Positions 303 to 19,410 are shown, counted from the first letter of the stretch. The stretch is 20,673 nucleotides of DNA from Candidatus Hermodarchaeota archaeon (GCA_048886185.1 JBHLKY010000022.1:1-20673); one strand, 5' to 3'. Notes: generated by a model not told the origin, from the sequence alone. Program-made: numbers and translations.

Positions 303-2732
303 CTAATTTATGAATTCTAAAGCGTGTTCAACGGCCCAAATACTTTGTGGCCGCATATACATGCTTGCACGATAATTACCAGTTATATCCCATGCTTCAG
401 GGGTACGGAACCAGTATCCTTTGTTGTAAGTGCTATTGGTATTATACACAACATTATAGATTCCCCAAGCAGTGTTCCAGGCTTCTTCTATCATTCCTTG
501 GTAAATCATCAATGCCGCAAGGGCATATGTGGTTCCCGTCCACACTTCTTGCGATTGTTCACTAGTTTTATCAATGTCACCATTAGGTCGCATGCCATTT
601 ACAGCTCCCATTTGCCCATTAGCAAACTGAAGTACATTAAAGTTATAGATTTTTTCTAACGCTGACAAGATATAACTTTCTGGTATAATGGGAGCCAGAT
701 TTGTAGCATCGCAATACCATTGCCCACTTAATTGATCCGCCATAATACTGTCAGAATGAGGTCCCTCACTTGAATCGTAATTAAAGTACTCTCCATTCCA
801 TAATTTGATCTTGTATGAAGCTTTACCTTTCTCTAACCAATTTGCATAAATGCTTGCGTTACCTGTATCACCTATCAAGATTCCCATTTCAATGGCTGCT
901 TCTAAAGCTGCCAACCACAATCCAGCACAGTAAGCACTTTCACCTGACATTTTCCATTCATCATAAGTCTGATCTGGGACTCCTTCGTTTTCAGGTAGAT
1001 GATCACCATCTGTATCATAATTGTGTAAATAATCCAAAGCCATCACAACTGATGACCATCCATCCTCCACTATAGTAGTATTATTAGTAAAGAAATAGTC
1101 ACGATAAAGCTGTAAGACAAATTTTGAGTTCATATCCTTCCACATATTGGAATCACGCCATCTATAAGTATTTACAACAAACCAGGGGTCTTCATATCCG
1201 ATATCGTGAGGACAACTTCCTGGCACTTTACGGGGACCTGATTCACCTGTAGCCCAAATTGTCGTAATAGTTGGGTCATTTATCGGTACAGCAGCAATGA
1301 AATCACTAATCGTTTGTATTTGTAATTCTGGCCATAGCTGGATTAATGAAAAAGAGGCATAATAAAGAACATCAAAAGTATTATAACATTTATAATCAAA
1401 ACATTCGAGATAACCAAATTTTCCAATGCCTTCTTCAAGAGGACCCTCATTAACAAGGCCATTCCCCCAAAAAGTTCCACCATCAACCAAATAGTATAAT
1501 TCGTTGAACAACGCAGTTTTATACCAATCAGGACGGTTTTTATCATCTAGAATTGGCTGTTGCCAAGCATCAATGGCATCTTCCCATTTGGTGTAATTAA
1601 CCAAAGCCTCAGAAGCAATACTCCAAGAATTTCTACCAGTTGTCCCAAAAAAACGAGTATAACGTTTATACCATTGCCTACTCCAATCAAATTCAGTAAT
1701 GGGAAAATCCCATGAAAGAACAAATGGTACTGTTTGTGTTTCCCCAGGTTCTAATTCTAGAGTGACTGATAAAGCTGCTCCGATCTCTTCTAGTATATCA
1801 GCATAGTTTGTATTATTGATGTTATCTAGAATACCATCTGCTGCGAAATCTTGCCAAACATCAGAGGCTCCTCCACTAATAGAAAAACGTGAACGATAAC
1901 TTACAATCCAGTTAGGATCATTTTGAGTAAGAATGGCAAATGACCCATCCCATTCTTCCTCTACTTCATCTTTTTCACGAGTAAGAATAACACCCGTCAT
2001 ATTTTTATCATCAGCAATGTAGGCGTAGTTATACTTATCCATAACCAGATTTTCTGTAGCTCCTATTACACCTATAAGGTTCTGCCATGTAAACATCAAA
2101 CCTAATGTTAATGACTCATTTGTTGGATTTTCAACAATCCATTCAAATATTCCAACTGGATAACTACTTTCTTTGTAATTTTTTGGGATGATGGGAGAAA
2201 ATTGCTTTTGTATTAAATTCACAGGTAACTCTTTCCAATTGTAAGCATACCATGCTTTAGGAAAGAGCCCATAATATGTCCCAGCACCAACAGGCATATC
2301 CCAATTCCATTCTAGCTTCGCGTCTGATGCACTTAAGGGGCTAAGAACATGTGCATTGGATTCACCATTGTGGAAAACATAAATAGAAAACTGATTTGCA
2401 TAAACTGTTTCAAATTTATGGTGCCCAATGTCCAAGTGCCAACGTGCAAAGTCTCCGCGATAAGTACGACCAATACTGCCCGCGCCCATTCCACCCAAAG
2501 GAACTCCCCCCCATTCATTGTCATCAATTATCCAGTAACTAGTTTTCGGTTTCCCAACATGTCCATGAGGAACCCCAATACCTCGTGACCAAGCTACTTT
2601 AGGTATGCTACTTGGAGTGGGTAATATATCCTCAGGAGGACTAGGCTGATATAAACTTAGAAAGATTACTCCTATAGCACTTATTATAAATAATACTATA
2701 AAAATGCCAGCAATTATTATATTCCTTTTCAT
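303..2732 (-). CDS. GH116 beta-glucosidase (GBA2 / non-lysosomal glucosylceramidase family), N-terminally membrane-anchored
   Basis: 809 aa with GVPLGGMGAGSIGR N-terminal signature, FGYLECFDY (nucleophile Glu region), PDQTYDEW (acid/base Asp region) and TPEAW/YMRP C-terminal motifs. It begins with a hydrophobic helix (IIIAGIFIVLFIISAIGVIFLSL) followed by a Pro-rich linker. Confidence 0.92.
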   Translation of the reverse strand: MKRNIIIAGIFIVLFIISAIGVIFLSLYQPSPPEDILPTPSSIPKVAWSRGIGVPHGHVGKPKTSYWIIDDNEWGGVPLGGMGAGSIGRTYRGDFARWHLDIGHHKFETVYANQFSIYVFHNGESNAHVLSPLSASDAKLEWNWDMPVGAGTYYGLFPKAWYAYNWKELPVNLIQKQFSPIIPKNYKESSYPVGIFEWIVENPTNESLTLGLMFTWQNLIGVIGATENLVMDKYNYAYIADDKNMTGVILTREKDEVEEEWDGSFAILTQNDPNWIVSYRSRFSISGGASDVWQDFAADGILDNINNTNYADILEEIGAALSVTLELEPGETQTVPFVLSWDFPITEFDWSRQWYKRYTRFFGTTGRNSWSIASEALVNYTKWEDAIDAWQQPILDDKNRPDWYKTALFNELYYLVDGGTFWGNGLVNEGPLEEGIGKFGYLECFDYKCYNTFDVLYYASFSLIQLWPELQIQTISDFIAAVPINDPTITTIWATGESGPRKVPGSCPHDIGYEDPWFVVNTYRWRDSNMWKDMNSKFVLQLYRDYFFTNNTTIVEDGWSSVVMALDYLHNYDTDGDHLPENEGVPDQTYDEWKMSGESAYCAGLWLAALEAAIEMGILIGDTGNASIYANWLEKGKASYKIKLWNGEYFNYDSSEGPHSDSIMADQLSGQWYCDATNLAPIIPESYILSALEKIYNFNVLQFANGQMGAVNGMRPNGDIDKTSEQSQEVWTGTTYALAALMIYQGMIEEAWNTAWGIYNVVYNTNSTYNKGYWFRTPEAWDITGNYRASMYMRPQSIWAVEHALEFIN

Positions 2733-2752
2733 TTACTGATCTTCCTTCAAAT

Positions 2753-5197
2753 TTAGATTATTGTTGCTTTAACAGTTACTTTTGATTTCGTTACAGATGA
2801 GAAGGGAATGATACTTCCTTTAATTGATTGTCCATCTACCTCAAGAATGGTTTTATTTCCTTCACCAGTTCTTTCAACATGAATATTGTAAATCACTCCA
2901 CGGAAGACACGTTTTACTTTAAAACCTGACCAATTCTTTGGAATGACTGGTGTAATTTGTAATCCAGTGTAAGTAGGTCGGATACCAAGAATCCAATTTG
3001 TTATAGCTATATAATTCCAAGCAGCTGTACCTGTTAACCAAGAATTTTTGGCTTCACCGAAAGTTGGAGCATCTCGTCCAGCAATCATCTGAGCATATAC
3101 ATATGGTTCACAACGATGTATTTCGCTAATGATTTCACGAGCAGAAGGATTGGTACGCATATAATAATCATATGCTTTATCACCATGTCCGATCATTGTT
3201 TCTGAGATTATGATCCAAGGATTTGTATGACAAAAAATACTAGCATTCTCTTTATATCCAGGAGGATATGAAGAAATCTCACCTAGATGTAAATAATATT
3301 GTGAGTATGCAGGCTGATGAAGCATAATTCCATGCTCAGTAGCTAAAAAGCTCTCTACAGAAGTTAGGGCTTTCTCTGCACGACCATCTTCCAGACCCAT
3401 CCCAGCAAGGATACAAAAACCCTGCGATTCGATGAAGATTCGTCCCTCTTTACATATATGGGATCCTACTTTATCCCCATAATCATCATAGGCGCGAAGA
3501 AACCACTCACCATCCCAACCATATTTAGAAACAGCTACTTTCATTTTTTCATTCCAAATAAGGCATTCTTTTACATCCTCCTCTAAATTACACTCTTGAA
3601 GGATTTTGATGTATTCCTTAACAGCTAGTATGAATAAGGCTGCAATAAAAATTGATTCTGCTACTTTGCCATCTTTGTTTGTAGTGGTCTGAAATGACTG
3701 ACCAGGTTCTTCAGAAAAGCAGTTCAAGTTTAAGCAATCATTCCAATCTGCACGGCCTATGAGTGGTAATTCATGTGGGCCCAATCTCTCTTGTATATAA
3801 TGGAGACTGCGCTTCAGGTGGTTCAATAGCTTTTCTTCTGTCCCAGATTGATTCTCATAAACTACAAGTTCATTAAGAATGTTAAAATCACCTGTTTCTT
3901 TTAAATATGCAGCTACACCTAAAATTAACCATAGAGGGTCATCATTAAAATCACTTCCAATATCATCATTACCTCGCTTAGTAAAAGGTTGATACTGATG
4001 AAAAGCACCGCCTGTTTTCAATTGCGTGGCAGCTAGATCCAAAATTCGTTCTCGTGCTCTTTCAGGAACCATATGTACAAATCCTAATAGATCTTGATTA
4101 GAGTCACGAAATCCTAATCCTCGACTAATTCCAGACTCGAAAAAGGAAGTCGAGCGTGACAAATTAAATGTGACCATGCACTGATAAGCATTCCAAATAT
4201 TAACCATCCTATCAACATGAATGTCTGGAGTATTGACTTGAAATTTATTTAATAAATGATCCCAATATGACTTTAGAGTGTTGAAGGCACCAACAACGTT
4301 TTCTTCAATCGAATATTTGGTGATAATTTTCCTTACTGTTCTTTTGTTGATTGTTTGCGATTCAGGAGGATTGAACTTCTGGTCACGAGGATTCTCGTGA
4401 TAACCAAGGATATAAAAGATTTGTTTTCTATCACCGGGATTCATTGTTAGTGTTATATGGTGTGAACCTATCGGTGCCCAACCATGAGCAGTGGAGTTAC
4501 ATGATTGACCAGTCTCGACCACCATTGGCTTCTCCCAACTCCGATATAAGCCCAAGAATTCATCACGTTGAGTATCATGTCCTTCTAGGGGTTCTGAACA
4601 GGCAAAGTAAGCAAAATGATCGCGTCGTTCGCGATATTCAGTTTTATGATAGATTACACCGCCTTCAATCTCTACTTCGCCTGTATTAAAATTTCTTTGA
4701 AAATTGGTGAAATCATCTTGTGCATCCCATAAACAAAATTCTATACAAGAAAAAATTGATAAGTTCACTTTATTATCATTCTGGTTTTCTATTATAATAT
4801 GCCAGATTTCTAGATTCTCACCTAGCGGAACAAAATACAGGATCTCTGATTTAATACCCCTATAAGCAGAACTAATTATGGTATACCCCAATCCGTGACG
4901 ACAACGATAATTTTTTAATTCAGTACGAGTGGGTTGCCAAGAAGGAGACCAGAATTCTTTGGTATTGTTATCTCGTAAATAGATATATCGGCCACCAAAA
5001 TCTAAAGGAACATTGTTATAGCGATATCGAGTAATACGTCGCATTTTTGCATCTTGGTAAAATGAATATCCTCCAGCAGTATTGGAGATAATACCAAAAT
5101 ATTTTTCACAGCCTAAGTAATTTATCCAAGGTAATGGAGTATCAGGTTGAGTGATGACATATTCCTTTCGATCATCGTCAAAATATCCGTAACGCAT
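2753..5197 (-). CDS. cbpA: Cellobiose phosphorylase (GH94)
   Basis: 814 aa starting MRYGYFDD..EYVIT.PDTP.PWINY, with GFRDSNQD, FNDDPLWL, GRADWNDCLNLNCFS (catalytic Asp), GYKENA, EPYVYAQM and NSWLTGTAAW. It is co-linear with Thermotoga/Clostridium cellobiose phosphorylases as recalled. No signal peptide. Confidence 0.93.
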   Translation of the reverse strand: MRYGYFDDDRKEYVITQPDTPLPWINYLGCEKYFGIISNTAGGYSFYQDAKMRRITRYRYNNVPLDFGGRYIYLRDNNTKEFWSPSWQPTRTELKNYRCRHGLGYTIISSAYRGIKSEILYFVPLGENLEIWHIIIENQNDNKVNLSIFSCIEFCLWDAQDDFTNFQRNFNTGEVEIEGGVIYHKTEYRERRDHFAYFACSEPLEGHDTQRDEFLGLYRSWEKPMVVETGQSCNSTAHGWAPIGSHHITLTMNPGDRKQIFYILGYHENPRDQKFNPPESQTINKRTVRKIITKYSIEENVVGAFNTLKSYWDHLLNKFQVNTPDIHVDRMVNIWNAYQCMVTFNLSRSTSFFESGISRGLGFRDSNQDLLGFVHMVPERARERILDLAATQLKTGGAFHQYQPFTKRGNDDIGSDFNDDPLWLILGVAAYLKETGDFNILNELVVYENQSGTEEKLLNHLKRSLHYIQERLGPHELPLIGRADWNDCLNLNCFSEEPGQSFQTTTNKDGKVAESIFIAALFILAVKEYIKILQECNLEEDVKECLIWNEKMKVAVSKYGWDGEWFLRAYDDYGDKVGSHICKEGRIFIESQGFCILAGMGLEDGRAEKALTSVESFLATEHGIMLHQPAYSQYYLHLGEISSYPPGYKENASIFCHTNPWIIISETMIGHGDKAYDYYMRTNPSAREIISEIHRCEPYVYAQMIAGRDAPTFGEAKNSWLTGTAAWNYIAITNWILGIRPTYTGLQITPVIPKNWSGFKVKRVFRGVIYNIHVERTGEGNKTILEVDGQSIKGSIIPFSSVTKSKVTVKATII

Positions 5198-5397
5198 TCT
5201 TCTTCCTCAATTTCTCGAATGAAAATATTCATTCTGCTTATTTGAATGGAGTTTATTTGAGTTTCAATTAACGAAATAGTATCTTATAATATCCAAAAAA
5301 GTATTTTTTATTATTCTGAACTTCCAAAAAGATTCCCCCCTTTTTATTTTAAATGATGTAAGATAGTATTAGTAAAAGAGTATAAAGTGGTATTTAC
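5198..5397. promoter_or_regulatory. Divergent promoter region between cbpA-GH116 (-) and GH3 (+), containing an 18-bp palindrome at 5217-5234
   Basis: A 200-bp, very AT-rich gap between head-to-head genes. GAATGAA-AATA-TTCATTC has perfect 7-bp arms and lies about 20 nt upstream of the cbpA ATG. Confidence 0.6.
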
Positions 5398-7575
5398 ATG
5401 ATCGAACCCTATAAAGATCCTTCACTCCCTTCTCATGAAAGAACTAAAGATTTAATGAGTCGAATGACTCTAGAAGAGAAAATAGGCCAGATGTGTCAAC
5501 TTGACCTTAGTCATGACCCCACTATTTGGATATATGAGAGAAACATTGGCTCATATCTCAATGCAAAATGGGAGGATACACAACGCCTCCAAAAGATGGC
5601 TTTAGAGACCCGGCTTAAAATCCCTTTAATCTTCGGAATCGACGCAGTTCATGGGCATTGTTTCCATGATGGAGCTACAGTATTCCCTTCACAATTAGCA
5701 ATGTCGTGTAGTTGGAATCCCAATCTATTAGAAGAAGTAGCACGAATCACAGCTCTTGAAATGATCCACACGGGTTTCCACTGGACTTTTTCTCCTATTC
5801 TCTGTATTGGTAGAGACCCTCGTTGGGGTCGTGTTAATGAAACTTTTGGAGAAGATCCGTTCCTTGTTGGTGTGTTGGCATCAGCAATGGTTAGGGGTTA
5901 TCAGGGCAACAGCTTATCTGATCCAGAAAGTGTTCTCGCTTGTCCAAAACACTTTGTAGCTTATGGTGAAACTATTGGAGGGAGAGACTCTACAGAAGCT
6001 GAGGTCTCAAAGAGAAAACTAAAAAGTATCTTTTTACCACCATTTAAGGCAGTAGTAGATACAGGATGTGGTTCCATCATGGCAGGTTATCATTCAATAG
6101 ATGGTACACCCTGTTCTGCTAATTCATGGTTGTTAAAAGAAGTTTTAAAGAAGGAATGGGGATTTAAAGGTTTTATTCTAACAGATTGGGCAAATGTAAC
6201 TTGGTTACATGAATTGCAACGTGTTGCCCCTTCATTATTAGATGCAGCTGAAATCGCCCTTTCATCTGGGAATGATATGATTATGTCTACTCCTGAATTC
6301 TATAATATTATTATTAAAAGGATAAAGGAAGGACATATTTATGAAAAACTTATTGATGAAGCCTGTTCACGAATTTTGGAGGTAAAATTCCGTCTAGGCC
6401 TCTTTGAACAGAAGGGTTTACTTAAAACAGATCCAAATGGCGGAATAATCGGGTGTTTGGCTCATAAGAAGAAGGCTTTGGAAGCAGCACTTAAATCATT
6501 AGTTTTGTTAAAGAATGATAATAATCTTCTACCTTTGAGGGAAAATATTGGCAAAATTGCAGTATTAGGCCCAAATGCGGATAATTCGATAGCCCAGCTT
6601 GGTGATTGGTCTTTTGGTAAAGTTCTTAATTGGCCCCCAAGAGATAGTGATGTTGTAAATGGTCACAAAGACAACATAATGACTGTTTTGGATGGTATTA
6701 AAAAGCGAGTGAAAGATCAGAGTTCTTTATTATATGTCAAAGGCTGTGATGTGCTAAATCTAGATGATAAGGACATTCAAAAAGCTGTTCATGCAGCAAG
6801 GGAAGCGAATGTGGCAATAGCAGTCGTGGGGGATAATCTTAGTTTAAATGGAGAACATAAAGATCGTGCCTCTCTTGATCTGACTGGAGCACAACAAGAA
6901 CTTCTAGAGTCTGTTAAAGCAACAGGAACTCCTTTGATCGTGGTTCTTATAAACGGAAAGCCATTAACAATACCGTGGATAGCAGAAAATGCAGATGCTA
7001 TTCTTGAAGCTTGGAATCCAGGAAATGAGGGTGGGAATGCGGTTGCGAATGTGCTTTTTGGAGATTTTAATCCTTGTGGGAAATTAACAATATCCTTTCC
7101 CCGACATATCGGGCAATTACCAATCTATTATAATCAATTGCCTGGTTGGCACGGAGGAAAGTATATTGACATGGATGCTGATCCGCTATTTGCATTTGGC
7201 TTTGGATTGTCTTATACAAATTTTCAATATAGTAATCTTAATTTTTCTAAGACTGAATTAAAAGAACATGAAAGATTAGTTGTTTTTGTAGATGTTAAAA
7301 ATACAGGGCATCGTGAAGGGACAGAAATCGTACAGCTTTATGTTAATGACAAATACAGCTCTATTACTACACCAATTAAGGAATTAAAGGGATTTAAACA
7401 TGTAACACTTCAACCAGGCGAAAAAAAAGAGGTAAATATAACGTTGCTTATATCAAAACTAGCATTAATCAATTCCGAGGGTGTAGAATGTGTGGAACCA
7501 GGGGAATTTGAAATTATGGTTGGTTCATCTTCAAGAGAAAAAGATCTTTTAAAAAAGAGTATTTTTGTTAATTAG
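5398..7575 (+). CDS. GH3 beta-glucosidase (BglX-like), cytoplasmic
   Basis: 725 aa with RLKIPLIFGIDAVHG, WGRVNETFGEDP, KHFVAYG, ILTDW (nucleophile Asp), SLVLLKN and LYAFGFGLSYT-like motifs, plus a C-terminal FnIII-like domain (VQLYVND..KELKGFK). No signal peptide. Confidence 0.93.
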   Translation: MIEPYKDPSLPSHERTKDLMSRMTLEEKIGQMCQLDLSHDPTIWIYERNIGSYLNAKWEDTQRLQKMALETRLKIPLIFGIDAVHGHCFHDGATVFPSQLAMSCSWNPNLLEEVARITALEMIHTGFHWTFSPILCIGRDPRWGRVNETFGEDPFLVGVLASAMVRGYQGNSLSDPESVLACPKHFVAYGETIGGRDSTEAEVSKRKLKSIFLPPFKAVVDTGCGSIMAGYHSIDGTPCSANSWLLKEVLKKEWGFKGFILTDWANVTWLHELQRVAPSLLDAAEIALSSGNDMIMSTPEFYNIIIKRIKEGHIYEKLIDEACSRILEVKFRLGLFEQKGLLKTDPNGGIIGCLAHKKKALEAALKSLVLLKNDNNLLPLRENIGKIAVLGPNADNSIAQLGDWSFGKVLNWPPRDSDVVNGHKDNIMTVLDGIKKRVKDQSSLLYVKGCDVLNLDDKDIQKAVHAAREANVAIAVVGDNLSLNGEHKDRASLDLTGAQQELLESVKATGTPLIVVLINGKPLTIPWIAENADAILEAWNPGNEGGNAVANVLFGDFNPCGKLTISFPRHIGQLPIYYNQLPGWHGGKYIDMDADPLFAFGFGLSYTNFQYSNLNFSKTELKEHERLVVFVDVKNTGHREGTEIVQLYVNDKYSSITTPIKELKGFKHVTLQPGEKKEVNITLLISKLALINSEGVECVEPGEFEIMVGSSSREKDLLKKSIFVN

Positions 7576-7714
7576 ACAGAATTGCACTTTTATTTCAATC
7601 ATTACCAAATAAAAGATATTATTAGTCCACAGATTGTACTTCATATTAAATTAGTTTATCAAAAGTTTCGTAAGAAGAAATGAAATGTATTCCGTCTTTT
7701 TTTAAAAAAAAATG

Positions 7715-7742
7715 TTTGACATAACATCACATGTATGTCTAA
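7715..7742. promoter_or_regulatory. Imperfect inverted repeat upstream of the ABC binding-protein gene (candidate operator)
   Basis: TTTGACATA-N10-TATGTCTAA has 9-bp arms with one mismatch, about 110 nt upstream of ATG 7851. Confidence 0.3.
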
Positions 7743-7810
7743 TATGGGTTCAGCCAACGATATCCTTTTAATTACTTTAATCTCGTCATTGTAGCTTGTA
7801 TTTTTAAGCG

Positions 7811-7830
7811 AAAAATTTCCTTTAAAAATA
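7811..7830 (+). promoter_or_regulatory. Candidate archaeal BRE/TATA for the binding-protein gene
   Basis: An A-rich stretch followed by TTTAAAAA at 7821-7828, 30 nt upstream of ATG 7851, the spacing expected for a near-leaderless archaeal transcript. The AT-rich background makes chance matches likely. Confidence 0.35.
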
Positions 7831-7850
7831 TAATAAATGATGGATGAAAT

Positions 7851-11366: not shown

Positions 11367-11370
11367 TCTG

Positions 11371-12228
11371 ATGTTTAATTACTTACGGACTCATCAGGGA
11401 TTTACAGTTACTTTAATCATTTTCTTTGGTATTGTGATATTTGGCTTTATTGGCCCATTTTTTACTGTAAATCCCTATGAAGGACAATTCGACAAGTGGG
11501 GTACAAGAATGATATTTAAACCTCCTTCTCAGTATCTACTCTTAGGAACTGACGATTATGGAAGGGATGTCTTCGCTCAACTTGCCCATGCCACTCAAAA
11601 TTCCCTTATAGTCGGCATCACAACTGGTATTATAGTTATTATTATTGCTATTGCCATTGGAAGTATCGCAGCTTATAAAGGTGGATTTATAGACGAGCTC
11701 CTGATGTTGATAACAAATATTGTCATTGTTTTTCCTGTGTACCCAGTTTTGTTAATTTTAGCCGCATCTATTCCCACTGAAGACCGATCATTATTCTTAG
11801 TATCTATGATTCTCGCGGTTACAGCATGGCCTTGGGTGGCCAGAGCTATCCGATCACAAGTTTTAAGTTTGAGAGAAAGGGAATTTGTAAATTTAGCCCG
11901 AGTATCGGGGATGTCAGATATTAAAATAGCGGCAGTTGAAGTCCTTCCTAACATGTTTGCATATCTAGGATTACTATTGGCAATAGTAACAGGCGGGGCA
12001 ATTGTTGCAGAAGCGGGTATTAGCTTACTTGGATTAGGACCTGATCCACGGTTATATGTCACACTAGGGAGTATGTTATACTGGGTCGTGCAAAATGAAT
12101 CCATACGCTCTGAAATGTACTGGTTATATTACCCCCCTGGGATTATACTAACATCATTTCTTGTCATTCTGTATGTTTTACATAATAACCTTGATGAAAT
12201 TTTTAATCCACGATTGAAGAGGCAATAA
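11371..12228 (+). CDS. ABC transporter permease, OppC/DppC family
   Basis: LLGTDDYGRDVFAQL, IDELLM, WPWVARAIRSQVLSLREREFVNLARVSG (EAA loop), EAGISLLGLG and FNPRL. The start is placed at 11371 (MFNYL, with an SD) rather than 11284 from the track. Confidence 0.93.
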   Translation: MFNYLRTHQGFTVTLIIFFGIVIFGFIGPFFTVNPYEGQFDKWGTRMIFKPPSQYLLLGTDDYGRDVFAQLAHATQNSLIVGITTGIIVIIIAIAIGSIAAYKGGFIDELLMLITNIVIVFPVYPVLLILAASIPTEDRSLFLVSMILAVTAWPWVARAIRSQVLSLREREFVNLARVSGMSDIKIAAVEVLPNMFAYLGLLLAIVTGGAIVAEAGISLLGLGPDPRLYVTLGSMLYWVVQNESIRSEMYWLYYPPGIILTSFLVILYVLHNNLDEIFNPRLKRQ

Positions 12229-12232
12229 GACC

Positions 12233-13222
12233 ATGTCTGAAAGTCTTCTCAAGGTTGAGCACCTTAAAGGGTATTATAGGGGGATGTTTGGTGTTGTACA
12301 TGGTGTAGACAATGTTTCATTTAAAATGGAACGAGGAGAAATCGTAGGATTAGCTGGGGAATCAGGTTGTGGAAAAAGCACATTAGCAGAGTTGATTTCC
12401 GGCACTCCACGACCCCTCTTGTATTATGAATCGGGTAAAGTAATTATTGGCGAATATGAAGTATATCAAATAGACGCAGAGCTGCTAAGAACCGAAGTTA
12501 AGTGTAAGTTAATGTCTTATGTTCCCCAGGCATCCATGGAATCATTAAATCCTGTAAAGAGGATTATTGATTTCATAATGGACGTGGTACGAGAAAGAAC
12601 AAAGAAAAAGGGATCTAAAAAAGAAATCATTAAGCAGGCTTCAGAACACTTCTCCCGTGTTGGACTAGATGAGCAGGTTTTAAAGCGTTATCCTCATGAG
12701 CTTTCAGGTGGAATGAAACAACGGGCTGTTATTGCAATCTCTACCCTCTGGAACCCAAACTTATTGATCATCGATGAACCCACGTCAGCATTAGATGTGA
12801 CTTCACAAAAGCAAATGATCAAAATGCTTTCAGATTTAAAAAAGGAGGGAATAATTCAAAGCATCCTTTTTGTTTCTCATGACATTGCTTCCTTACGGCA
12901 ATTATGTGATCGCTGTATAATTATGTATTGTGGGGAAATTGTTGAAACTGGTAATATGAATGAGATAATTAATGAACCCCTTCATCCTTATACACAAGGA
13001 TTAATTTCATCTATTGTCTCCTTCAATCCAGATGGCACACGACCAGCTGAACTCAAGAGCATTCCTGGATCTCAGCCTGACTTACGACATCCTCCTCCTG
13101 GGTGCCGCTTCCATCCACGATGCTATTCTACTATGACGCATTGTAGAACGTATGATCCTCCTATAATCAACTTTCCTCAAAAAGAAGGACATTACGTAAA
13201 GTGTTGGCTATATAAAGAATAG
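12233..13222 (+). CDS. ABC transporter ATP-binding protein, OppD/DppD family
   Basis: Walker A GESGCGKS, signature LSGGMKQR, Walker B LIIDEPT, H-loop VSHD, HPYTQGL and C-terminal GCRFHPRC..C..C domain. Confidence 0.95.
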   Translation: MSESLLKVEHLKGYYRGMFGVVHGVDNVSFKMERGEIVGLAGESGCGKSTLAELISGTPRPLLYYESGKVIIGEYEVYQIDAELLRTEVKCKLMSYVPQASMESLNPVKRIIDFIMDVVRERTKKKGSKKEIIKQASEHFSRVGLDEQVLKRYPHELSGGMKQRAVIAISTLWNPNLLIIDEPTSALDVTSQKQMIKMLSDLKKEGIIQSILFVSHDIASLRQLCDRCIIMYCGEIVETGNMNEIINEPLHPYTQGLISSIVSFNPDGTRPAELKSIPGSQPDLRHPPPGCRFHPRCYSTMTHCRTYDPPIINFPQKEGHYVKCWLYKE

Positions 13223-13233
13223 ATGGTGCTTTT

Positions 13234-14034
13234 ATGACATATCAGGAACCAATTCTAAGGATTGAGAATTTAACAAAGATATTCACTTCAGGATTCATAA
13301 ATGTAGTAACCATTACTGCTGTAAACAATGTATCTTTTACTATTGATGAGGGAGAAATTGTTTCATTAGTAGGAGAGAGCGGATCAGGAAAATCAACAAC
13401 AGCAAATATAGTTTTGAAGCTACTTTCGCCTACTAGTGGTCAAGTATTTCTTCAGGGAAAAGATATTACTTCTTTCAAAAAAAGGACTGATTATTATAAA
13501 AAGGTTCAAGTTGTATTTCAAGATCCCTATTCTTCCTTTAATTTGGTGTATAGAATTGATCGCGTCCTCTATAACGCCTTTAACCTTCGAGAAGGGCACC
13601 ATTCAAAATCTGAAAAAAAAGAAATCATAATAGATACTTTGGCACAAATTGGATTAAATGCTGACGAAGTATTGGGACGTTACCCCCATCAACTTAGTGG
13701 AGGGCAACTCCAACGATTCTTACTTGCTAGGATCTTAATTATCAAACCCATCTTATTAATTGCTGATGAACCAACAAGTATGATTGATGCTTCCTCCCGA
13801 GCAGGAATCTTAAATCTACTTGAAGACCTTCGTGAATCTGAAAAGTTCTCTGTCTTATTTATTACACATGATATCGCTCAAGCCCAATATATTTCAAATA
13901 GAGTTTGTGTAATGAAGAATGGAGAAATCGTTGAAAAAGGATCATGTGAAGCAGTTTTTGGCAACCCTCAACATACTTATACTCAAGAATTACTCGCAAG
14001 CGTACCTGACCTCTATAGCAGATGGGATATGTAA
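13234..14034 (+). CDS. ABC transporter ATP-binding protein, OppF/DppF family
   Basis: Walker A GESGSGKS, Q-loop VFQDPYSS, LSGGQLQR, LIADEPTS, ITHD and PQHTYTQELL. It lacks the Cys-containing C-terminal extension. Confidence 0.95.
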   Translation: MTYQEPILRIENLTKIFTSGFINVVTITAVNNVSFTIDEGEIVSLVGESGSGKSTTANIVLKLLSPTSGQVFLQGKDITSFKKRTDYYKKVQVVFQDPYSSFNLVYRIDRVLYNAFNLREGHHSKSEKKEIIIDTLAQIGLNADEVLGRYPHQLSGGQLQRFLLARILIIKPILLIADEPTSMIDASSRAGILNLLEDLRESEKFSVLFITHDIAQAQYISNRVCVMKNGEIVEKGSCEAVFGNPQHTYTQELLASVPDLYSRWDM

Positions 14035-14079: not shown

Positions 14080-15225
14080 ATGAAGATAAGAAAAAAAGTT
14101 CACTTGGCGATGTTTCTATCTATATTTCTTATAATAGCAGTGCTTCACTTTCAATTTGTGACTGCGGATAAAAGGAATTTTAACATAAAAAGGATCGGAA
14201 AATTCGATGATGGAGGGAGATATCTAGGTATTCAACTTCGAGAACCTTTTGTTTATGCTGTCGATGGAGAGCAAGGCTTAGAAATTATTAATATAACCGA
14301 TAGAGAAAATAGCTTTCTCGTCGGGAAATTCAATCCATATGCTGGAATCCCTCAGGATGTGTTCATTAATGGCTCCTATGCCTTCTTAGCGAATAGCTTT
14401 GACGGGATAAGGATTATTAATATCACTGATCCAACCAAAGCAACCAATATCAGTCAATTTCTAGAAGTCGAGATTCAATACATCCCATTTTACCAAGAAA
14501 AGGCCAAGAGTGATTCTATCAATATCTATGTAAAAGGGACTATTGCCTATATTGCCGATGGAAAGTTTGGAATAAGGATTCTAAACCTCACAGACATTCT
14601 TAATCCAATAAAAATCGGAGAATATCCCCCTGCTGAGGCAAAAAACCCTGGTGTGACGAGTGCCATTGTAGTAAATGACTCATACGCTTATGTAGCGGAT
14701 GGGGATAACGGGATTGAAATTCTTGATATCAGTGATTTTAAAAATATTACACGAATTGGCCATTATGATGATGGAGGGAAAGCAAGGGATCTATCTCTAG
14801 TAGATTCATTTTTATACGTAGCCGATTCTGATGATGGATTCGAGATATTGGATGTTTCAGATCCAACTAATCCTGTTGAGATTGGTGGATTCTATGATGG
14901 TAGTGGCTTAGCTAATAGTGTATATATAGATGGGGATCGAGCTTTTATTGCTGATAATACTGATGGTCTTGAGGTGTTTGATATTTCTGATCCAACCTCC
15001 CCTGTTGAAATTGGACAGTTTTATGAGGAAACTGGTATCATAGGTTTGGCTCAAGAAGTCGTTGTTAATGGCTCCTATATTTACGTGGCTTTTGGGACAC
15101 AGGGGGTAGAAATATTAATTTTTGGTACCCCAGAATCAGTAATACCCATTTTACCACTTACTTTTCTCGCTGTTATAGCTCTAGGAATCATCATTTGGAT
15201 TATCCGTGGTGGAAAGGCCTATTAA
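14080..15225 (+). CDS. Surface LVIVD-repeat (about 7-bladed beta-propeller) protein, copy 1, with signal peptide and C-terminal TM
   Basis: Seven repeats of the form V.V.G.YAYVAD...GLEI.D(I/V)SDP..P..IG. It has an N-terminal basic+hydrophobic signal, a C-terminal hydrophobic helix, and lies 45 nt downstream of the ABC operon. Confidence 0.88.
   Translation: MKIRKKVHLAMFLSIFLIIAVLHFQFVTADKRNFNIKRIGKFDDGGRYLGIQLREPFVYAVDGEQGLEIINITDRENSFLVGKFNPYAGIPQDVFINGSYAFLANSFDGIRIINITDPTKATNISQFLEVEIQYIPFYQEKAKSDSINIYVKGTIAYIADGKFGIRILNLTDILNPIKIGEYPPAEAKNPGVTSAIVVNDSYAYVADGDNGIEILDISDFKNITRIGHYDDGGKARDLSLVDSFLYVADSDDGFEILDVSDPTNPVEIGGFYDGSGLANSVYIDGDRAFIADNTDGLEVFDISDPTSPVEIGQFYEETGIIGLAQEVVVNGSYIYVAFGTQGVEILIFGTPESVIPILPLTFLAVIALGIIIWIIRGGKAY
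14208..15120 (+). repeat. Long imperfect inverted repeat, copy A (paired with about 19780-20673 on the - strand)
   Basis: Identical tracts: 14241-14285 = revcomp 20595-20639 (45 nt), 14339-14393 = revcomp 20487-20541 (55 nt), 15001-15035 = revcomp 19857-19891 (35 nt). Confidence 0.9.
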
Positions 15226-15291
15226 AAACTCAATGTAATATACCTAATTCTTCTGTTCTAAGGTTTTTTGAAGTACAATTTGTTGGTATTT

Positions 15292-17649
15292 CTATCCCAT
15301 AAGTACACTTACATTATGAATTTTATTATCTCCAAATGCAGGGATTTGTTGATTCTCTATGGTTTTTTTGTCAACTTTTATCTCTTTTATTCCTTTCGAT
15401 ACCATTTTTGGATTAATCACTTCGATTTTATAGCTTGTATTTCTAAATCGTCTACTAAGCTTAAAATTTTTCCATTCCTTTGGAATACATGGATCTACAA
15501 TCAAATTGTCGAAAGTTGGTCGAATCCCAAGAATCCATTCCAAGGCTGCTTTCAATGACCAAGCTGCAGTCCCAGTAAGCCAAGAATTTTTCGCCATACC
15601 AAATTTAGGGTGATCTGGACTCGTGATCATCTGAGAATAGACATATGGTTCTGTGAAATGGATATGAGAGATATTATTTTTAGTCGTTGGAGCGATTTTC
15701 TGCCAATATTCATAGGCAAAATCAGCACGCCCAAGAATACTTTCAGCTATAATAGCCCATGGATTTGTATGACAAAATATACTAGCATTTTCTTTTAAAC
15801 CTGGTGGAAAGGTTGTAATACCTCCCAATTTGGGATAAAATCTGGTATAACCAGGTGTAAAAAGCTTGATTCCATAATCAGTATTCAAATATTCTCTCAC
15901 AGCATCCATAGCTAGATGTGCACGATCGTTTGAAGCAATTCCACTGATTATCGCCCACGTTTGCGAGTTAAGAAAGATCTGCCCTTCTTCACATTTAGCA
16001 CTACCCACAGGTTCACCTGTATCGGTGAATGCTCTAATATACCATCGACCATCCCATGCAACCTTGTTTATATTATCCTTTAGCCTTTGTGACGTTCTTC
16101 TAAACGATATGGCGTCATCTATTTGATTATATCTTTCAGCAATTTCTGACATTGATAACAGGGCTTTATGGAACTGCATTCCCACCCAAACGCTCTCACT
16201 TGCGTTATTTGGACCTGGTAGACTTAATGTGTCATTCCAATCTGCTGTACCAATTAGGGGAAGCTTATGATTTCCAAGATTATTCTGTGTGAATACTAGT
16301 GCTTGTTTAAGATGGTCATATACTGATGCCATAGATCCTTCAATATAAGGAATTTCTTCGTCTAAAATCGACATATCCCCTGATTCTTTAATATAATCAG
16401 ATACCGCGAGGATTAACCAGAGATGATCGTCACTAAAGAATAATCTATCTTTATTAATGTATTCAGGGAACGATCCTTTACGTGTTAATGGAAAAAACAC
16501 ATGATAGACTTTACCACTCTCAAACTGATTTTGAGTTAAATCTAAAAGACGCATACGTACTCTTTTCGGAAGTACATGGGCAATGGCCATTGCATCTTGA
16601 TTACTATCACGAAATCCCATGCCCCTTCCAATCCCCGTCTCATAAAAAGACACATATCGCGACCAATCGAATGTTATTTTACATTGATAAGGGTTCCAAA
16701 CATTCAACATTAGGTTAAAGTTTTTATCTGGGGTGTTTGCTTGAAATGCTTCTAGGTAATTTTTCCAGTATGTTTTGAGCTTCTGAAATTCAATGTGAAC
16801 CATTTCTTGACTAGAATACTTCCGTATTAACTCTTTCCCCTCCTTTTTCTCCTTTGCAACTCCTAGAAGATAAATGATTGTTTTTTCCTCTTGAGGAATG
16901 AGTGTGATGTCTGAGGAAGTTGCTGCTATTGGATTTCCTCCAAGTGCATGAGAATTGGAACATTTACCTTTCTCGACTCGAATTGGATTTGCTTCTGAGT
17001 GGTAGGGGCCAACAAAAGCTTCACGGTCACAATCATAACCTGTAATGTTACTATTTGAAGCAAAGAAGGCAAATTTTGTGCTTAAATCAAACAGAGAATA
17101 AAAAATCCCATTTTCATCGTAGTTAGCTACAGCTACATTTTGGATATATTGCAAATCATTCTGATCGCCTAGAGCTCTCCATAAACAGAATTCTGCATAA
17201 GAAAAAATGCTAAAATCCTTGTGTCCATCTGTATTGTTCTTTATGGTAAACATCCATATTTCTAAATCATCCGTTAAAGGGACAAAATAGGTTATTTTTG
17301 TGTTAACACCTTTATATCGAGATTTTATTATTGTATATCCTAAACCATGACGACATTGATATTCATCAAGGTTCATTAAAATCGGTTGCCATGTTGGAGA
17401 CCAGAACTCAGATGTTTGGTTATCTCTAATGTATATATACCTTCCTGGGCGATCCATGGGTATATTATTGTACCTATATCGGAGTATTCTTCGATCTCTA
17501 GGATCTATGTGGAAGCTATACCCCCCTCCTGTGTTTGAAATCATAGCACAATAGTTGCTATTACTTAAATAATTAATCCAAGGAGTAGGGGTATCAGGTT
17601 TAGTTATAACATATTCTTTCTCATCTGAGGAAAAATTTCCATAACTCAA
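15292..17649 (-). CDS. GH94 phosphorylase, cellodextrin-phosphorylase-like (specificity unproven)
   Basis: EYVITKPDTPTPWINY, RYRYNNIPMDRPGRYIY, GMGFRDSNQD, VYHVFFPLT, SDDHLWL, ADWNDTL (catalytic Asp), GGITTFPPGLKENA and NSWLTGTAAW. It resembles Clostridium stercorarium CepB as recalled. The start is probably TTG at 17649 (MSYGNF, aligning to MRYGYF); the track start is GTG at 17658. Confidence 0.85.
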   Translation of the reverse strand: MSYGNFSSDEKEYVITKPDTPTPWINYLSNSNYCAMISNTGGGYSFHIDPRDRRILRYRYNNIPMDRPGRYIYIRDNQTSEFWSPTWQPILMNLDEYQCRHGLGYTIIKSRYKGVNTKITYFVPLTDDLEIWMFTIKNNTDGHKDFSIFSYAEFCLWRALGDQNDLQYIQNVAVANYDENGIFYSLFDLSTKFAFFASNSNITGYDCDREAFVGPYHSEANPIRVEKGKCSNSHALGGNPIAATSSDITLIPQEEKTIIYLLGVAKEKKEGKELIRKYSSQEMVHIEFQKLKTYWKNYLEAFQANTPDKNFNLMLNVWNPYQCKITFDWSRYVSFYETGIGRGMGFRDSNQDAMAIAHVLPKRVRMRLLDLTQNQFESGKVYHVFFPLTRKGSFPEYINKDRLFFSDDHLWLILAVSDYIKESGDMSILDEEIPYIEGSMASVYDHLKQALVFTQNNLGNHKLPLIGTADWNDTLSLPGPNNASESVWVGMQFHKALLSMSEIAERYNQIDDAISFRRTSQRLKDNINKVAWDGRWYIRAFTDTGEPVGSAKCEEGQIFLNSQTWAIISGIASNDRAHLAMDAVREYLNTDYGIKLFTPGYTRFYPKLGGITTFPPGLKENASIFCHTNPWAIIAESILGRADFAYEYWQKIAPTTKNNISHIHFTEPYVYSQMITSPDHPKFGMAKNSWLTGTAAWSLKAALEWILGIRPTFDNLIVDPCIPKEWKNFKLSRRFRNTSYKIEVINPKMVSKGIKEIKVDKKTIENQQIPAFGDNKIHNVSVLMG

Positions 17650-17654
17650 GGTAT

Positions 17655-17660
17655 TCACCT
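17655..17660 (-). promoter_or_regulatory. Shine-Dalgarno AGGTGA for the second GH94
   Basis: AGGTGA on the - strand, 5 nt before TTG 17649. It is complementary to the ..UCACCU.. 16S tail typical of archaea. Confidence 0.6.
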
Positions 17661-17715
17661 ATTAGATAATCTCTCTCTGTTTTGCCACCTATTCGACAAA
17701 ATATTTTGAAATTAG

Positions 17716-19410
17716 CTAATTCTTCTTTAAACTGTGCTTTTTTGAATTAAATCGATAAACTGCTAATAACGCAAATATAGAGATGATCCATATTAGGACA
17801 GTAAAACCAGAAGTGGTCTTTGGTGATGCAGTTGTAGCCGATGTGGTAGAAGTAGTTGATATAATCAATGGATGAACAGTTACAAGGACTGTATCCTGTC
17901 GAGTGTATACGCCATCAGTGAATACAATTGTATAGTTAAAGGTTCCAGCAGTTCCGGTAGTAACAGTGATATAAAAAGCTGTATTGTTTTTCCAAATATC
18001 ATTTTGCGATCCAAAAACAAGATTGTCAAGATATACCGTATAAGTTCCATATATTGTGTCAGAGTCGAGAATTATCCACGTTATGTTCACGTCTTCATTT
18101 TGATTCGTTTCAATATCTTCAGGAGAATTAATGGTTGGTTCTGGGTGTTTTACAACACTCACTATTACTGTGTCATGGCCGATGGATATTCCATCAGTGA
18201 ATACAATTGTATAGTTGAATGAACCAATATTTTCTGTATTAACTGTTATATTTACTGTCGTTCCATTTTCCCAGATTTCATCCTGTTGTCCTAATAAGGT
18301 GTTGTCTAGATAGATACCATACGTCCCTGACGTATTATCAATGTCATTAATCATCCAAGAAATATTCACATCTTCATCTGTATAGGTTTCGAAATCTTCA
18401 GGAGAAATTATGGTTGGAGCAGGCCATTTCACACTACCACCAAAAAATTTTACCAACACCTCTGCTGCAGGTTTGGGTGTTCTTTCTTCTCGAAAAATTC
18501 CCCAGTGTTCTCCTACGGGTCCTTCTTGATTTATCTTCCATGCCTCATCAAATGCTTCAAAGAGATAGCTTTTGATTTTGTTTTCAGCCAGCATCGGGAG
18601 GAGATCATTATAAAATTCTTTTTGTACTTGTTCCGAATATCTATCAGGATCCCAGTCTTTCGGACCTGATGGCCATCCTGCCTCTGCTAAAAAGATTTCT
18701 TTATCTGGATATTTAGTTTGAAGTTCCTCAATACGTTCTATTGTATACTCTGCCGCAAATGAGCCATATGTTGGCGATGGTTTCCCCTCCCAGTAGCTAT
18801 ACACATGAACAAACAGGACATCACAGGCATTTACGAGCTGTGGGTACTGATCCCATATATGCCAAGGTTCTGCAGTTGTAACTGGTACAGATGTTTGGTT
18901 ATTAACAATCTCTATATATTTAATTAGTTGACTAAGAGTCATGTCCTCTCTAAGGAGAACCTCATTTCCAACGATTAATGCTGAAGAGATATCTGCAACA
19001 GCAAGGCCTTGACTAATTTCATAACTATTCAGATAATGATTATTAAGACTGTTATTGGGGACTATCCAGATTCCTGTGGCACAATCAATCCCATTTTCAT
19101 GTGCTATCCCAGGGATGACATTTTGTCCATAATTCATTCCATATGTTCTTATGTTTGTAACATTTAATTCTTTCAATATTCCAAGATCCTCTCTCACATT
19201 TTGTGGATTAATCCATTCACCAGGAGGACCAAAATATCTATATGCGCCATAACACAATCCATGGAAATCAAATGTTGATGCTTGTGCTTCCAGTGCAGAT
19301 TTAGCTTTAAGATTATTTTCTGAAGTGTTCATTTGAAGTGGTTGGAGATGTGAGAAAATGATAATAAGCCCTAATAAAGAGAAAAATGTCAAATACGATA
19401 TATTTTTCAT
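17716..19410 (-). CDS. Surface-anchored GH17 beta-1,3-glucanase/glucanosyltransferase with two tandem Ig-like repeats and a C-terminal TM anchor
   Basis: GLCYGAYR, IRTYG, VGNEVLLR (acid/base Glu), VPVTTAEPW, VHVYSYWEG, LAEAGWPS (nucleophile Glu), FEAFDEAWK and EHWGIF. It has a signal peptide, a 93-aa duplicated beta-rich domain, an S/T linker, and TTSGF + TM + basic tail. ATG at 19410 is preferred over the TTG at 19419. Confidence 0.88.
   Translation of the reverse strand: MKNISYLTFFSLLGLIIIFSHLQPLQMNTSENNLKAKSALEAQASTFDFHGLCYGAYRYFGPPGEWINPQNVREDLGILKELNVTNIRTYGMNYGQNVIPGIAHENGIDCATGIWIVPNNSLNNHYLNSYEISQGLAVADISSALIVGNEVLLREDMTLSQLIKYIEIVNNQTSVPVTTAEPWHIWDQYPQLVNACDVLFVHVYSYWEGKPSPTYGSFAAEYTIERIEELQTKYPDKEIFLAEAGWPSGPKDWDPDRYSEQVQKEFYNDLLPMLAENKIKSYLFEAFDEAWKINQEGPVGEHWGIFREERTPKPAAEVLVKFFGGSVKWPAPTIISPEDFETYTDEDVNISWMINDIDNTSGTYGIYLDNTLLGQQDEIWENGTTVNITVNTENIGSFNYTIVFTDGISIGHDTVIVSVVKHPEPTINSPEDIETNQNEDVNITWIILDSDTIYGTYTVYLDNLVFGSQNDIWKNNTAFYITVTTGTAGTFNYTIVFTDGVYTRQDTVLVTVHPLIISTTSTTSATTASPKTTSGFTVLIWIISIFALLAVYRFNSKKHSLKKN
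17860..18417 (-). repeat. Tandem 279-nt (93-aa) Ig-like domain repeat within the GH17 gene
   Basis: PTI.SPED.ET...EDVNI.W.I.D.D...GTY..YLDN...FNYTIVFTDG..DTV.V.V occurs twice. An identical 26-mer at 17912-17937 and 18191-18216 is 279 nt apart. Confidence 0.85.

Follow-up and report, generated by a model that had tools for sequence, protein, structure and literature searches.

A probable locus for capture, import and phosphorolysis of beta-gluco-oligosaccharides in an Asgard archaeon of the Heimdall/Hodarchaeales group

The CbtA system of Pyrococcus furiosus is an archaeal beta-glucoside importer of the Opp/Dpp family of ATP-binding cassette (ABC) transporters which works together with the cytoplasmic beta-glucosidase CelB, degradation being by hydrolysis only. 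The Thermotoga maritima locus TM0024-TM0032 encodes a secreted laminarinase, BglB of glycoside hydrolase family 3 (GH3; other families are named likewise) and an Opp-family importer with the family-5 binding protein BglE (TM0031), which binds cellobiose and laminaribiose (PMC8050422). In the clostridial pathway (C. thermocellum, R. cellulolyticum), whole cellodextrins enter through ABC importers and are split by Cbp and Cdp, which saves ATP. GH161 enzymes act on beta-1,3-oligoglucans with a degree of polymerization (DP) of at least 3; in bacteria such as Paenibacillus and Acholeplasma they co-localize with GH94, GH3 and ABC importers, in clusters for which a sequential phosphorolysis was suggested (Kuhaudomlarp et al. 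2019, PMC6484121). Here we describe a stretch of 20,673 bases (the window), the beginning of a 75 kb contig (C22) from a Candidatus Hermodarchaeota archaeon (GCA_048886185.1, JBHLKY010000022.1:1-20673), in which genes for GH116, two GH94 enzymes (GH94a and GH94b), GH3, an Opp-type importer, two LVIVD propellers and GH17 are clustered. The stretch probably carries a conserved locus for capture, import and phosphorolysis of beta-gluco-oligosaccharides in a Hodarchaeales-type Asgard archaeon.

As in T. maritima, an Opp/Dpp-family importer would have been recruited for beta-gluco-oligosaccharides, an extracellular beta-1,3-glucanase and a cytoplasmic GH3 enzyme are predicted, and the product of a neighbouring GH5 gene is closest to T. 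maritima Cel5A. The GH94 cellobiose phosphorylase of Thermotoga was also included in the comparison. In contrast to Thermotoga, the host is an archaeon, the outside proteins are held by a C-terminal helix and a Ser/Thr/Pro stalk instead of being periplasmic or lipoproteins, GH17 replaces GH16, two GH94 and two LVIVD genes belong to the cluster, and no regulator gene is present. As in the clostridial pathway, whole oligosaccharides would be imported and ATP saved, with one GH94 enzyme proposed for DP of at least 3 and a second, strict cellobiose phosphorylase to finish. GH94b, however, has 785 residues instead of about 1000, scores only 105 bits with Cdp and shares with it only the features of an open acceptor site; there is no cellulosome, and the importer is of the Opp type. 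While Pyrococcus relies on hydrolysis, two or three phosphorylases would do most of the work here, and the host belongs to the Asgard archaea instead of the Euryarchaeota. As in the bacterial GH161 clusters, a GH161 gene is found near GH94, GH3 and an importer, but it is 13 kb off behind exporter genes, and unlinked in a relative with a closed chromosome. Loci of Thorarchaeota (PRDJ01000043) and Bathyarchaeia likewise contain a family-5 binding protein, two permeases, two ATPases and a GH94b-type enzyme of 785 residues, in the Thorarchaeote also a GH94 of 814 residues, but carry GH1 or GH130 instead of GH3, GH116, GH17, LVIVD and GH5. The mechanism is thus one familiar from bacteria; what is new is the host lineage, the membrane tethering of all outside parts, the mosaic make-up and the GH94b clade. 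A search of the available literature found no paper describing the locus, none combining Asgard with GH94, and none combining Heimdallarchaeota with beta-glucosidase, ABC transporter and cellulose; only general statements on carbohydrate-active enzymes were found.

The genes were identified by listing of open reading frames (ORFs) and Pfam scans of the window (Table 1). Every family named in the original prediction was detected at the place given there, and the closest characterized relatives of the enzymes support its proposal of beta-glucan utilization with a phosphorolytic core. That core is clearest for GH94a, which matched the cellobiose phosphorylase (CBP) of C. thermocellum (3QDE) from end to end with 1135 bits, as compared with 516 bits for chitobiose phosphorylase. 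Residues (Cellulomonas uda numbering, taken from the HMMER alignment) were tabulated over 81 GH94a-type and 120 GH94b-type sequences. GH94a keeps N163, Q165, R166, R351, R362, W488, D490, E649, Y653 and H666, all of which are invariant in the 81 clade members. The loop after D490 has 24 residues in the window's protein and 24 or 25 in GH94a-type sequences, so that the closed acceptor site, consisting of Arg166, Gln165, Glu649, Tyr653 and the N495-E509 loop, is complete. On these residues GH94a is predicted to be a canonical cellobiose phosphorylase (EC 2.4.1.20), located in the cytoplasm.

GH94b is a different case. It scored 736 bits with CBP, 580 with chitobiose phosphorylase and 105 with cellodextrin phosphorylase (CDP; 8XI1/5NZ7). 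Asp490, Trp488, Arg351, Arg362, His666, Lys658 and Glu659 are kept in 120 of 120 members of its clade and are invariant in both GH94 clades. The loop after D490, however, is reduced to nine residues in all 120 sequences, as against 24, and R166 is lost throughout (Tyr in the window's protein; the local alignment around this position differs by two residues between HMMER and MAFFT). Position 163 is Asp in 116 and position 649 Gly or Ala in 108 of the 120 sequences, and position 485 is Thr or Ser. The N495-E509 loop, present in CBPs and absent in CDPs, blocks subsites +2/+3; Arg166 versus an aromatic residue is a fingerprint separating CBP from CDP; CDPs have Asp at 163 and Ala at 649; and the exchanges N163D and E649G, together with three other changes, enable a CBP to make cellotriose (Ubiparip et al., PMC7471185). 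The contrast between the closed active site of CBP and the open one of CDP has been described structurally by O'Neill et al. (PMC5667895). GH94b combines absence of the loop with Asp163 and a small residue at 649, and read against these data the shortened loop, the loss of R166 and the exchanges at 163 and 649 point to an open acceptor site. GH94b thus looks like a CBP-sized enzyme with a CDP-like open acceptor site, its catalytic and phosphate-binding residues being intact. The chances that it is a phosphorylase for beta-gluco-oligosaccharides with DP of at least 3 appear about evenly balanced.

GH116 scored 842 bits with the beta-glucosidase TxGH116 of Thermoanaerobacterium (5BVU) and, by this closest characterized relative, is a putative beta-glucosidase. 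The PDB matches of GH3 are mostly beta-glucosidases, with some beta-xylosidases, and its best NCBIfam model is an exo-beta-1,3/1,6-glucosidase (873 bits, below the cut-off of 1330). We regard it as a predicted exo-beta-glucosidase which may prefer beta-1,3/1,6 linkages.

The same scores can be set against a rival choice of substrate. In a system for chitin or N-glycans, i.e. for N-acetylglucosamine (GlcNAc), the GH94 enzymes would be chitobiose phosphorylases, GH3 would be of the NagZ type, and GH116 would act as a hexosaminidase together with a GH20-like protein encoded three genes past the window. Besides this GH20-like gene, the 580 bits of GH94b, a weak match of the binding protein to a chitin-oligosaccharide binder from Vibrio (E 1e-11) and a separate GlcNAc-type locus on contig C20 of the genome would be in line with it. 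Yet GH94a prefers CBP by 1135 to 516 bits and keeps all CBP acceptor residues, GH3 reaches 44.7 bits on the NagZ model as against 619–873 on beta-glucosidase models, GH116 is closest to a beta-glucosidase, and neither a chitinase nor a deacetylase was found among the genes scanned (window and following genes). A chitin system is therefore very improbable.

The importer is complete, with all five components of the Opp/Dpp type (one SBP_bac_5 substrate-binding protein (SBP), two BPD_transp_1 permeases and two oligo_HPY ATPases) encoded in one row at 7851-14034. In the PDB, the binding protein comes closest to 2O7I/3I5O and 4JSD/4JSO (E ~1e-46), which we take to be Thermotoga binders of cello- and laminari-oligosaccharides, their PDB titles saying only 'oligopeptide-binding protein'; Thermotoga mannoside binders and the Vibrio protein follow. 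The association of such an importer with GH94b extends beyond this locus. Named relatives of GH94b (55–68% identity) are all archaeal and come from Hodarchaeota, Hermodarchaeota, Lokiarchaeota, Odinarchaeota, Thorarchaeota, Njordarchaeum, "Promethearchaeota" and Bathyarchaeia. In three genomes (Thorarchaeota, another Asgard lineage and Bathyarchaeia) the GH94b relative adjoins a family-5 binding protein, two permeases and two oligo_HPY ATPases. GH1 or GH130 is encoded nearby at these three loci, and the 814-residue GH94 of the Thorarchaeote is adjoining as well. Importer and GH94b are therefore a recurring archaeal module.

We predicted the topology of the proteins by scanning for hydrophobic segments and inspecting the terminal sequences. 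In GH116, a hydrophobic helix of about 25 residues comes after an initial MKR (hydrophobic segment at residues 1–31); this corresponds to a signal anchor, which would place the catalytic domain outside. An N-terminal signal, a Ser/Thr/Pro-rich stalk (Thr/Pro-rich in the binding protein) and a C-terminal membrane helix are present in each of the binding protein, LVIVD1 and GH17, whose short and mostly basic tails read RRRRK, KKHSLKKN and RGGKAY, respectively. LVIVD2 has a C-terminal anchor of the same type with the tail RRQR, its N-terminus being lost in an assembly gap, and the GH5 protein encoded beyond the window is anchored like the binding protein and GH17, with signal, stalk, helix and basic tail. 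GH116 is the only outside protein lacking a C-terminal helix and basic tail. GH94a, GH94b and GH3 are predicted to be cytoplasmic because they have neither an N-terminal signal or anchor nor a C-terminal helix. This distribution, with surface enzymes and binding protein on one side and GH94 and GH3 on the other, fits the route postulated originally, from surface cleavage through capture and import to cytoplasmic breakdown.

The Pfam match of GH17 is weak and partial (PF00332, 32.6 bits with a cut-off of 28.2). The assignment is nevertheless secure: residues 52–319 (268 residues) give a full-domain match to the glucanosyltransferase RmBgt17A (4WTP, E 5.6e-16), 361 library proteins were found at E <= 1e-30 with the whole protein, most among the matches listed being on the GH17 domain, and the translation contains two glutamate motifs, VGNEV (GNE) and LAEAGWPSG (E-x-G-W-P-S). 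These are the family signatures whose glutamates serve as acid/base and nucleophile. The signal peptide and the GH17 domain (~45–320) are followed by two beta-rich repeats of about 90 residues, a Ser/Thr linker, the membrane helix and the basic tail. The tandem repeats (window 18388-17875, residues ~331–512) are rich in N-x-S/T sequons. Since similar modules are repeated 8 to 23 times within giant proteins (2,500–5,200 residues) of the representative library, they probably serve as a spacer. This layout was derived from sequence and HMMER matches; a single-sequence AlphaFold model of the whole protein (pLDDT 38) was discarded. GH17 is a putative surface-anchored beta-1,3-glucanase or glucanosyltransferase.

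If transglycosylation were its role, the locus might build or remodel a beta-glucan on the cell's own surface, with GH17 as glucanosyltransferase, GH5 and GH116 trimming, and the phosphorylases, which are reversible, in synthesis or recycling; the attachment of all outside parts to the membrane of the cell itself would suit this, as does the fact that 4WTP is the best solved relative of GH17. We consider such a function highly unlikely. No glycosyltransferase or glucan synthase was found among the scanned locus genes, an SBP-dependent ABC system is an importer, the gene set corresponds to that of catabolic loci from Thermotoga and clostridia, and a patchy distribution (5 of 21 genomes of the genus, see below) suits an accessory nutritional trait better than an envelope function.

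LVIVD1 and LVIVD2 are 73% identical to each other; with the genome's other LVIVD proteins, about five in number, they share at most 33% identity. An AlphaFold model of LVIVD1 (from a 42-sequence alignment) is an all-beta propeller with pLDDT 94. Foldseek retrieved only generic propellers of the WD40 and BamB types, from which no function follows, and the sequence search gave only unnamed or 'hypothetical' relatives. In both relatives with the full gene order described below, an LVIVD orthologue likewise follows the second ATPase gene. From position and anchoring, capture of glycans at the surface is a reasonable guess.

The reading that we prefer, degradation and import of beta-glucans followed by phosphorolysis, can be put as a sequence of steps. 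At the surface, the anchored GH17 endo-beta-1,3-glucanase/transglycosylase, GH116 and the GH5 endo-beta-1,4-glucanase would cut and trim beta-glucans. The stalked, anchored family-5 binding protein would pass cello- and/or laminari-oligosaccharides to the Opp-type importer. In the cytoplasm, GH94b would shorten oligosaccharides with DP of at least 3 by phosphorolysis, GH94a would split cellobiose, giving glucose plus glucose-1-phosphate, and GH3 would hydrolyse what the phosphorylases leave, most likely beta-1,3/1,6 linkages. GH161 may handle imported laminari-oligosaccharides. Glucose-1-phosphate would enter glycolysis via phosphoglucomutases encoded elsewhere. Since GH17 and GH161 are directed at beta-1,3 and GH5 at beta-1,4 linkages, the set covers both types of glucan.

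The beta-1,3 side of this set could also be the principal one. The locus would then be mainly a laminarin system in which GH17 acts outside, GH116 and GH3 trim, GH161 yields laminaribiose, and GH94b splits the beta-1,3 disaccharide or short oligomers, with GH94a as a later add-on for cellobiose. GH17 is a beta-1,3-specific family, the best model for GH3 is the exo-beta-1,3/1,6-glucosidase, and BglE of Thermotoga binds laminaribiose as well as cellobiose. GH161 is encoded on the same contig and has orthologues in all three other searched genomes with GH116-GH94a-GH3 genes (G003, G008 and G010, introduced below); it leaves disaccharides to be finished by GH94 or a beta-glucosidase (PMC6484121). 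However, GH94b scores only 52 bits with the GH94 laminaribiose phosphorylase 6GGY, compared with 736 for CBP, an anchored Cel5A-like GH5 (398 bits) and a textbook cellobiose phosphorylase are conserved in the neighbourhood in G008, and GH161 is unlinked in G010. On balance, a system mainly for laminarin is unlikely, although less so than the chitin and remodelling alternatives.

Several points weigh against the proposed import and phosphorolysis of cello- and laminari-oligosaccharides. Regarding GH94b, the R166 position is aromatic (Tyr, Phe or Trp) in only 52 of the 112 clade members covered by the 15 commonest motifs, and Ser or Cys in the other 60. The protein lacks the extra N-terminal domain of true CDPs (~980–1010 residues) and has only 105 bits to them, which places it outside the classical CDP group. 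Its relatives are often found beside GH130 mannoside phosphorylases, so that the natural substrate could be something other than cellodextrins. The best structural relative of GH17 is a glucanosyltransferase, not a hydrolase, and the locus has no glucose transporter to match the free glucose that an extracellular GH116 would release. GH161 is about 560 kb away from the locus in G010, and a single in-frame stop is present in its copy from G010 (TGA) as well as in that from G008 (TAA). Neither a regulator gene nor a repeated operator motif was found in the locus, and a search of sequencing runs gave no RNA run with the stretch, co-expression being only inferred. The same search revealed four DNA runs from sediment metagenomes of one study which contain the stretch and are probably its source.

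Conservation of the locus was analysed by tblastn of all its proteins against the corresponding regions of relatives from the same GTDB genus: Candidatus Hodarchaeota archaeon WORE3 (G003), Promethearchaeota archaeon DZ2M.341 (G008) and Candidatus Heimdallarchaeota archaeon bin6 (G010; CP070695.1, 4,943,496 bp, labelled 'chromosome'). The order SDR-GH116-GH94a-GH3-SBP-permease-permease-ATPase-ATPase-LVIVD-GH94b-GH17, in which SDR denotes a short-chain dehydrogenase, is kept in G008 (on a 394-kb contig) and in G010 (closed chromosome), so that the locus is syntenic in three species. Identities are 53–85%, for LVIVD 43–61%; the SDR gene, cut by the contig start in the window, has a 61%-identical counterpart beside GH116 in both. 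In G008 the locus continues with the aldolase and GH5 genes that also follow in C22. In G010, GH17 is present in two tandem copies (C1:4260932-4263349) with 67% and 44% identity to the window's protein, and the GH20-like gene comes next. Fragments of the locus are present in G003 and G015. The version in G012 is more diverged; there GH94a and GH94b adjoin each other, and the importer comes after them. In G015 (C1:~852500-855900) the matches covered no more than the first 430 residues of GH3 and the N-terminal 597 of GH94a, which could be due to decay of the locus or to an assembly problem.

The source genome (G000) consists of 4.84 Mb in 75 contigs with 35% G+C and is estimated to be 96% complete and 4.96% contaminated. 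It encodes ribosomal protein L31e (58.8 bits; among the control genomes the family matches archaeal ones only) and actin (PF00022, 442 bits); no rRNA genes for taxonomy were recovered. On the evidence of L31e, actin, the named Hodarchaeota and Heimdallarchaeota members of the same genus and the linkage of the locus to such a genome, the host belongs to the Heimdall/Hodarchaeales group of the Asgard archaea. A Heimdallarchaeia/Asgard-like host had been predicted from the window, on the grounds of archaeal-style ribosome-binding sites, terminators and membrane anchors. The host holds, and of these signs the C-terminal anchors do too, genome context being diagnostic as well. Ribosome-binding sites and terminators are not diagnostic of archaea: GGAGG-like sites upstream of most locus genes do not discriminate between archaea and bacteria.

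That the contig might be bacterial contamination of the bin, carrying an ordinary bacterial locus, could be argued from the estimated contamination of 4.96% and from the 66–72% identity of GH94a to bacterial proteins. Against this, the same gene order is found in the 4.94-Mb single-contig Heimdallarchaeota chromosome, which excludes a binning artefact or contaminant, as well as on the 394-kb contig of a second genome of the genus. The G+C content of the contig (35.5%) equals that of the whole genome, the named relatives of GH94b are all archaeal, and the cluster is present in none of 75 bacterial loci around GH94a relatives. Contamination is extremely unlikely, and a well-known bacterial equivalent of the locus did not emerge from these 75 loci.

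Bacterial ties are nevertheless evident for part of the locus. The bacterial relatives of GH94a with 66–72% identity belong to Chloroflexota (Anaerolineae), Acidobacteriota, Ignavibacteriota and Bacteroidota, those of the Chloroflexota being the closest outside the Asgard archaea. In the window, GH94a and GH116 are on the same strand with a gap of 20 nt; one Anaerolineae contig (L034) has exactly this arrangement, GH94a followed after 20 nt by a 61%-identical GH116, and in another (L057) GH94a has a 54%-identical GH3 immediately upstream. These arrangements indicate exchange of a cassette between the archaea described here and Chloroflexota-like bacteria. When the 80 best GH94a relatives were placed in a tree with GH94b as root, the six Asgard sequences grouped in a single clade (SH-aLRT 92) which is sister to the 75 bacterial sequences and not nested among them. 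Transfer of GH94a is thus implied, in one direction or the other. The locus is a mosaic of the archaeal importer-GH94b module and a GH94a-GH116 cassette shared with Chloroflexota. GH94a was found in 5 of 21 other genomes of the same GTDB genus and in none of 19 genomes from other families of the class, and 6 of 150 evenly drawn Asgard genomes have any GH94, usually as a pair of a-type and b-type. Such a patchy distribution fits an acquired accessory trait.

With respect to regulation, the last ~130 nt upstream of the binding-protein gene (7722-7850) are nearly identical between the source genome and G010, the rest of the spacer having diverged; this block is a candidate promoter/operator. The divergent GH94a/GH3 spacer is weakly conserved among the source genome, G008 and G010. 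A motif picked by eye as a possible shared operator, TTGACATWAACAT, was no commoner than expected by chance and was rejected. Scans with bacterial promoter and terminator consensus sequences stayed at or below shuffle level. A T-rich stretch lies 3' of the binding-protein gene and would fit a higher expression of this gene than of the permeases. The binding-protein gene also stands out as a bump in the composition profile, with 42.7% G+C (33.7% at third codon positions, GC3) as compared with 35–39% (GC3 25–32%) in its neighbours.

Table 1. Features of the locus and of its continuation on contig C22. Positions are those of the window unless prefixed by C22; a dot marks features without strand.
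Feature	Position	Strand	Evidence and remarks
Short-chain dehydrogenase (SDR)	3-242	minus	N-terminal 80 residues, cut by contig start; PF00106 E 5.7e-13
GH116	303-2732	minus	PF04685 481 bits, PF12215 327 bits
GH94a	2753-5197	minus	PF17167 535 bits, PF06165 293 bits; 814 residues
Divergent GH94a/GH3 intergenic region	5198-5397	.	AT-rich, 200 nt; presumably two promoters
GH3	5398-7575	plus	three GH3 Pfam domains
Intergenic region upstream of binding-protein gene	7576-7850	.	conserved block ~7722-7850
Family-5 (Opp/Dpp-type) substrate-binding protein	7851-10034	plus	PF00496
ABC permease 1 (OppB-like)	10281-11366	plus	PF00528 113 bits; 74% identity to G010 copy
ABC permease 2 (OppC-like)	11371-12228	plus	PF00528; ATG 8 nt after GGAGGA, just past permease 1 stop
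ABC ATPase 1 (OppD-like)	12233-13222	plus	PF00005 and PF08352 (oligo_HPY C-terminal domain)
ABC ATPase 2 (OppF-like)	13234-14034	plus	PF00005 and PF08352
LVIVD1	14080-15225	plus	PF08309 133 bits; last gene of importer row
GH94b	15292-17658	minus	PF17167 503 bits; 785-788 residues
GH17	17716-19410	minus	PF00332 32.6 bits, 4WTP match
LVIVD2	19610-20673	minus	PF08309; 5' end beyond window across assembly gap
GH5 endoglucanase	C22:21575-22744		398 bits to Thermotoga maritima Cel5A (3AMC)
GH161 beta-1,3-oligoglucan phosphorylase	C22:32379-35633		1084 residues; no Pfam match; 839 bits to solved GH161 (9QQK, 9H8V)

The locus had been delimited at 303-19410, the end coordinate being the ATG of the GH17 gene, and called self-contained. 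This is inaccurate in two respects. First, the cluster runs on past the window. The window ends where a run of N begins (assembly gap C22:~20674-20773) inside the 5' part of LVIVD2, after which the rest of LVIVD2, deoxyribose-phosphate aldolase, the GH5 endoglucanase and a cytoplasmic GH20-like protein are encoded in this order. GH161 is reached further along the contig, after exporter genes and a Cof-type phosphatase, about 13 kb from the cluster. Secondly, functions are missing: besides a regulator, the locus lacks phosphoglucomutase, sugar kinase and glucokinase genes. Five phosphoglucomutase/phosphomannomutase (PGM/PMM) genes and one ROK kinase gene are present elsewhere in the source genome; an ADP-dependent glucokinase was not found in it. 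No SusC or SusD domains were detected in the ORFs of the window and the next 17 kb, as expected for an archaeon without an outer membrane. The locus is thus not a polysaccharide utilization locus (PUL) of the Bacteroidota type, and the term 'PUL-like' holds only loosely, for a co-located set of genes for degradation, binding and import.

Two further observations concern the same genome. A protein of 1204 residues (C22:27839-31453), encoded between the cluster and GH161, has MacB-type periplasmic core and FtsX permease domains fused to an ABC ATPase with oligo_HPY, an odd mix of exporter-type and importer-type parts. Contig C20 carries a second sugar locus (68301-88293) with genes for an ArsR-type regulator, GH16, GH130, an ABC permease and a NagA-like amidohydrolase. 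It also encodes a fusion of ROK kinase and glucosamine-6-P isomerase (1012 residues), a PGM-like protein of 714 residues, and an unusual fusion of 1412 residues in which GH2 N-terminal domains are combined with a complete GH94. This locus looks like a pathway for N-glycans or for beta-mannoside/GlcNAc.

A more far-reaching and rather unlikely interpretation would be that the GH94b clade represents a functional type new to GH94, its open site having arisen independently of the clostridial CDPs, and that, jointly, the LVIVD proteins are archaeal counterparts of the surface glycan-binding proteins of bacterial PULs. If this were true, the clade, whose named members are all from Asgard archaea or Bathyarchaeia and which is nearly always encoded beside Opp-type importers, would be the archaea's own route for phosphorolysis of beta-gluco-oligosaccharides with DP of at least 3. 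In any case, GH94b represents an uncharacterized GH94 subfamily that naturally has the changes by which engineers enabled CBP to make cellotriose, and it might find use in the synthesis of oligosaccharides.

Among the archaea, current placements put the Hodarchaeales nearest to the eukaryotes, and little is known about their diet. The rarity of GH94 (6 of 150 Asgard genomes, and 5 of 21 in the genus for GH94a) points to a particular saccharolytic niche and not to a general property of Asgard archaea. The mosaic make-up of the locus bears on the discussion about gene flow from bacteria to Asgard archaea. For its host, the locus provides a testable prediction of substrates, namely cellodextrins, mixed-linkage glucan or laminarin, which could guide enrichment, stable-isotope probing and cultivation.

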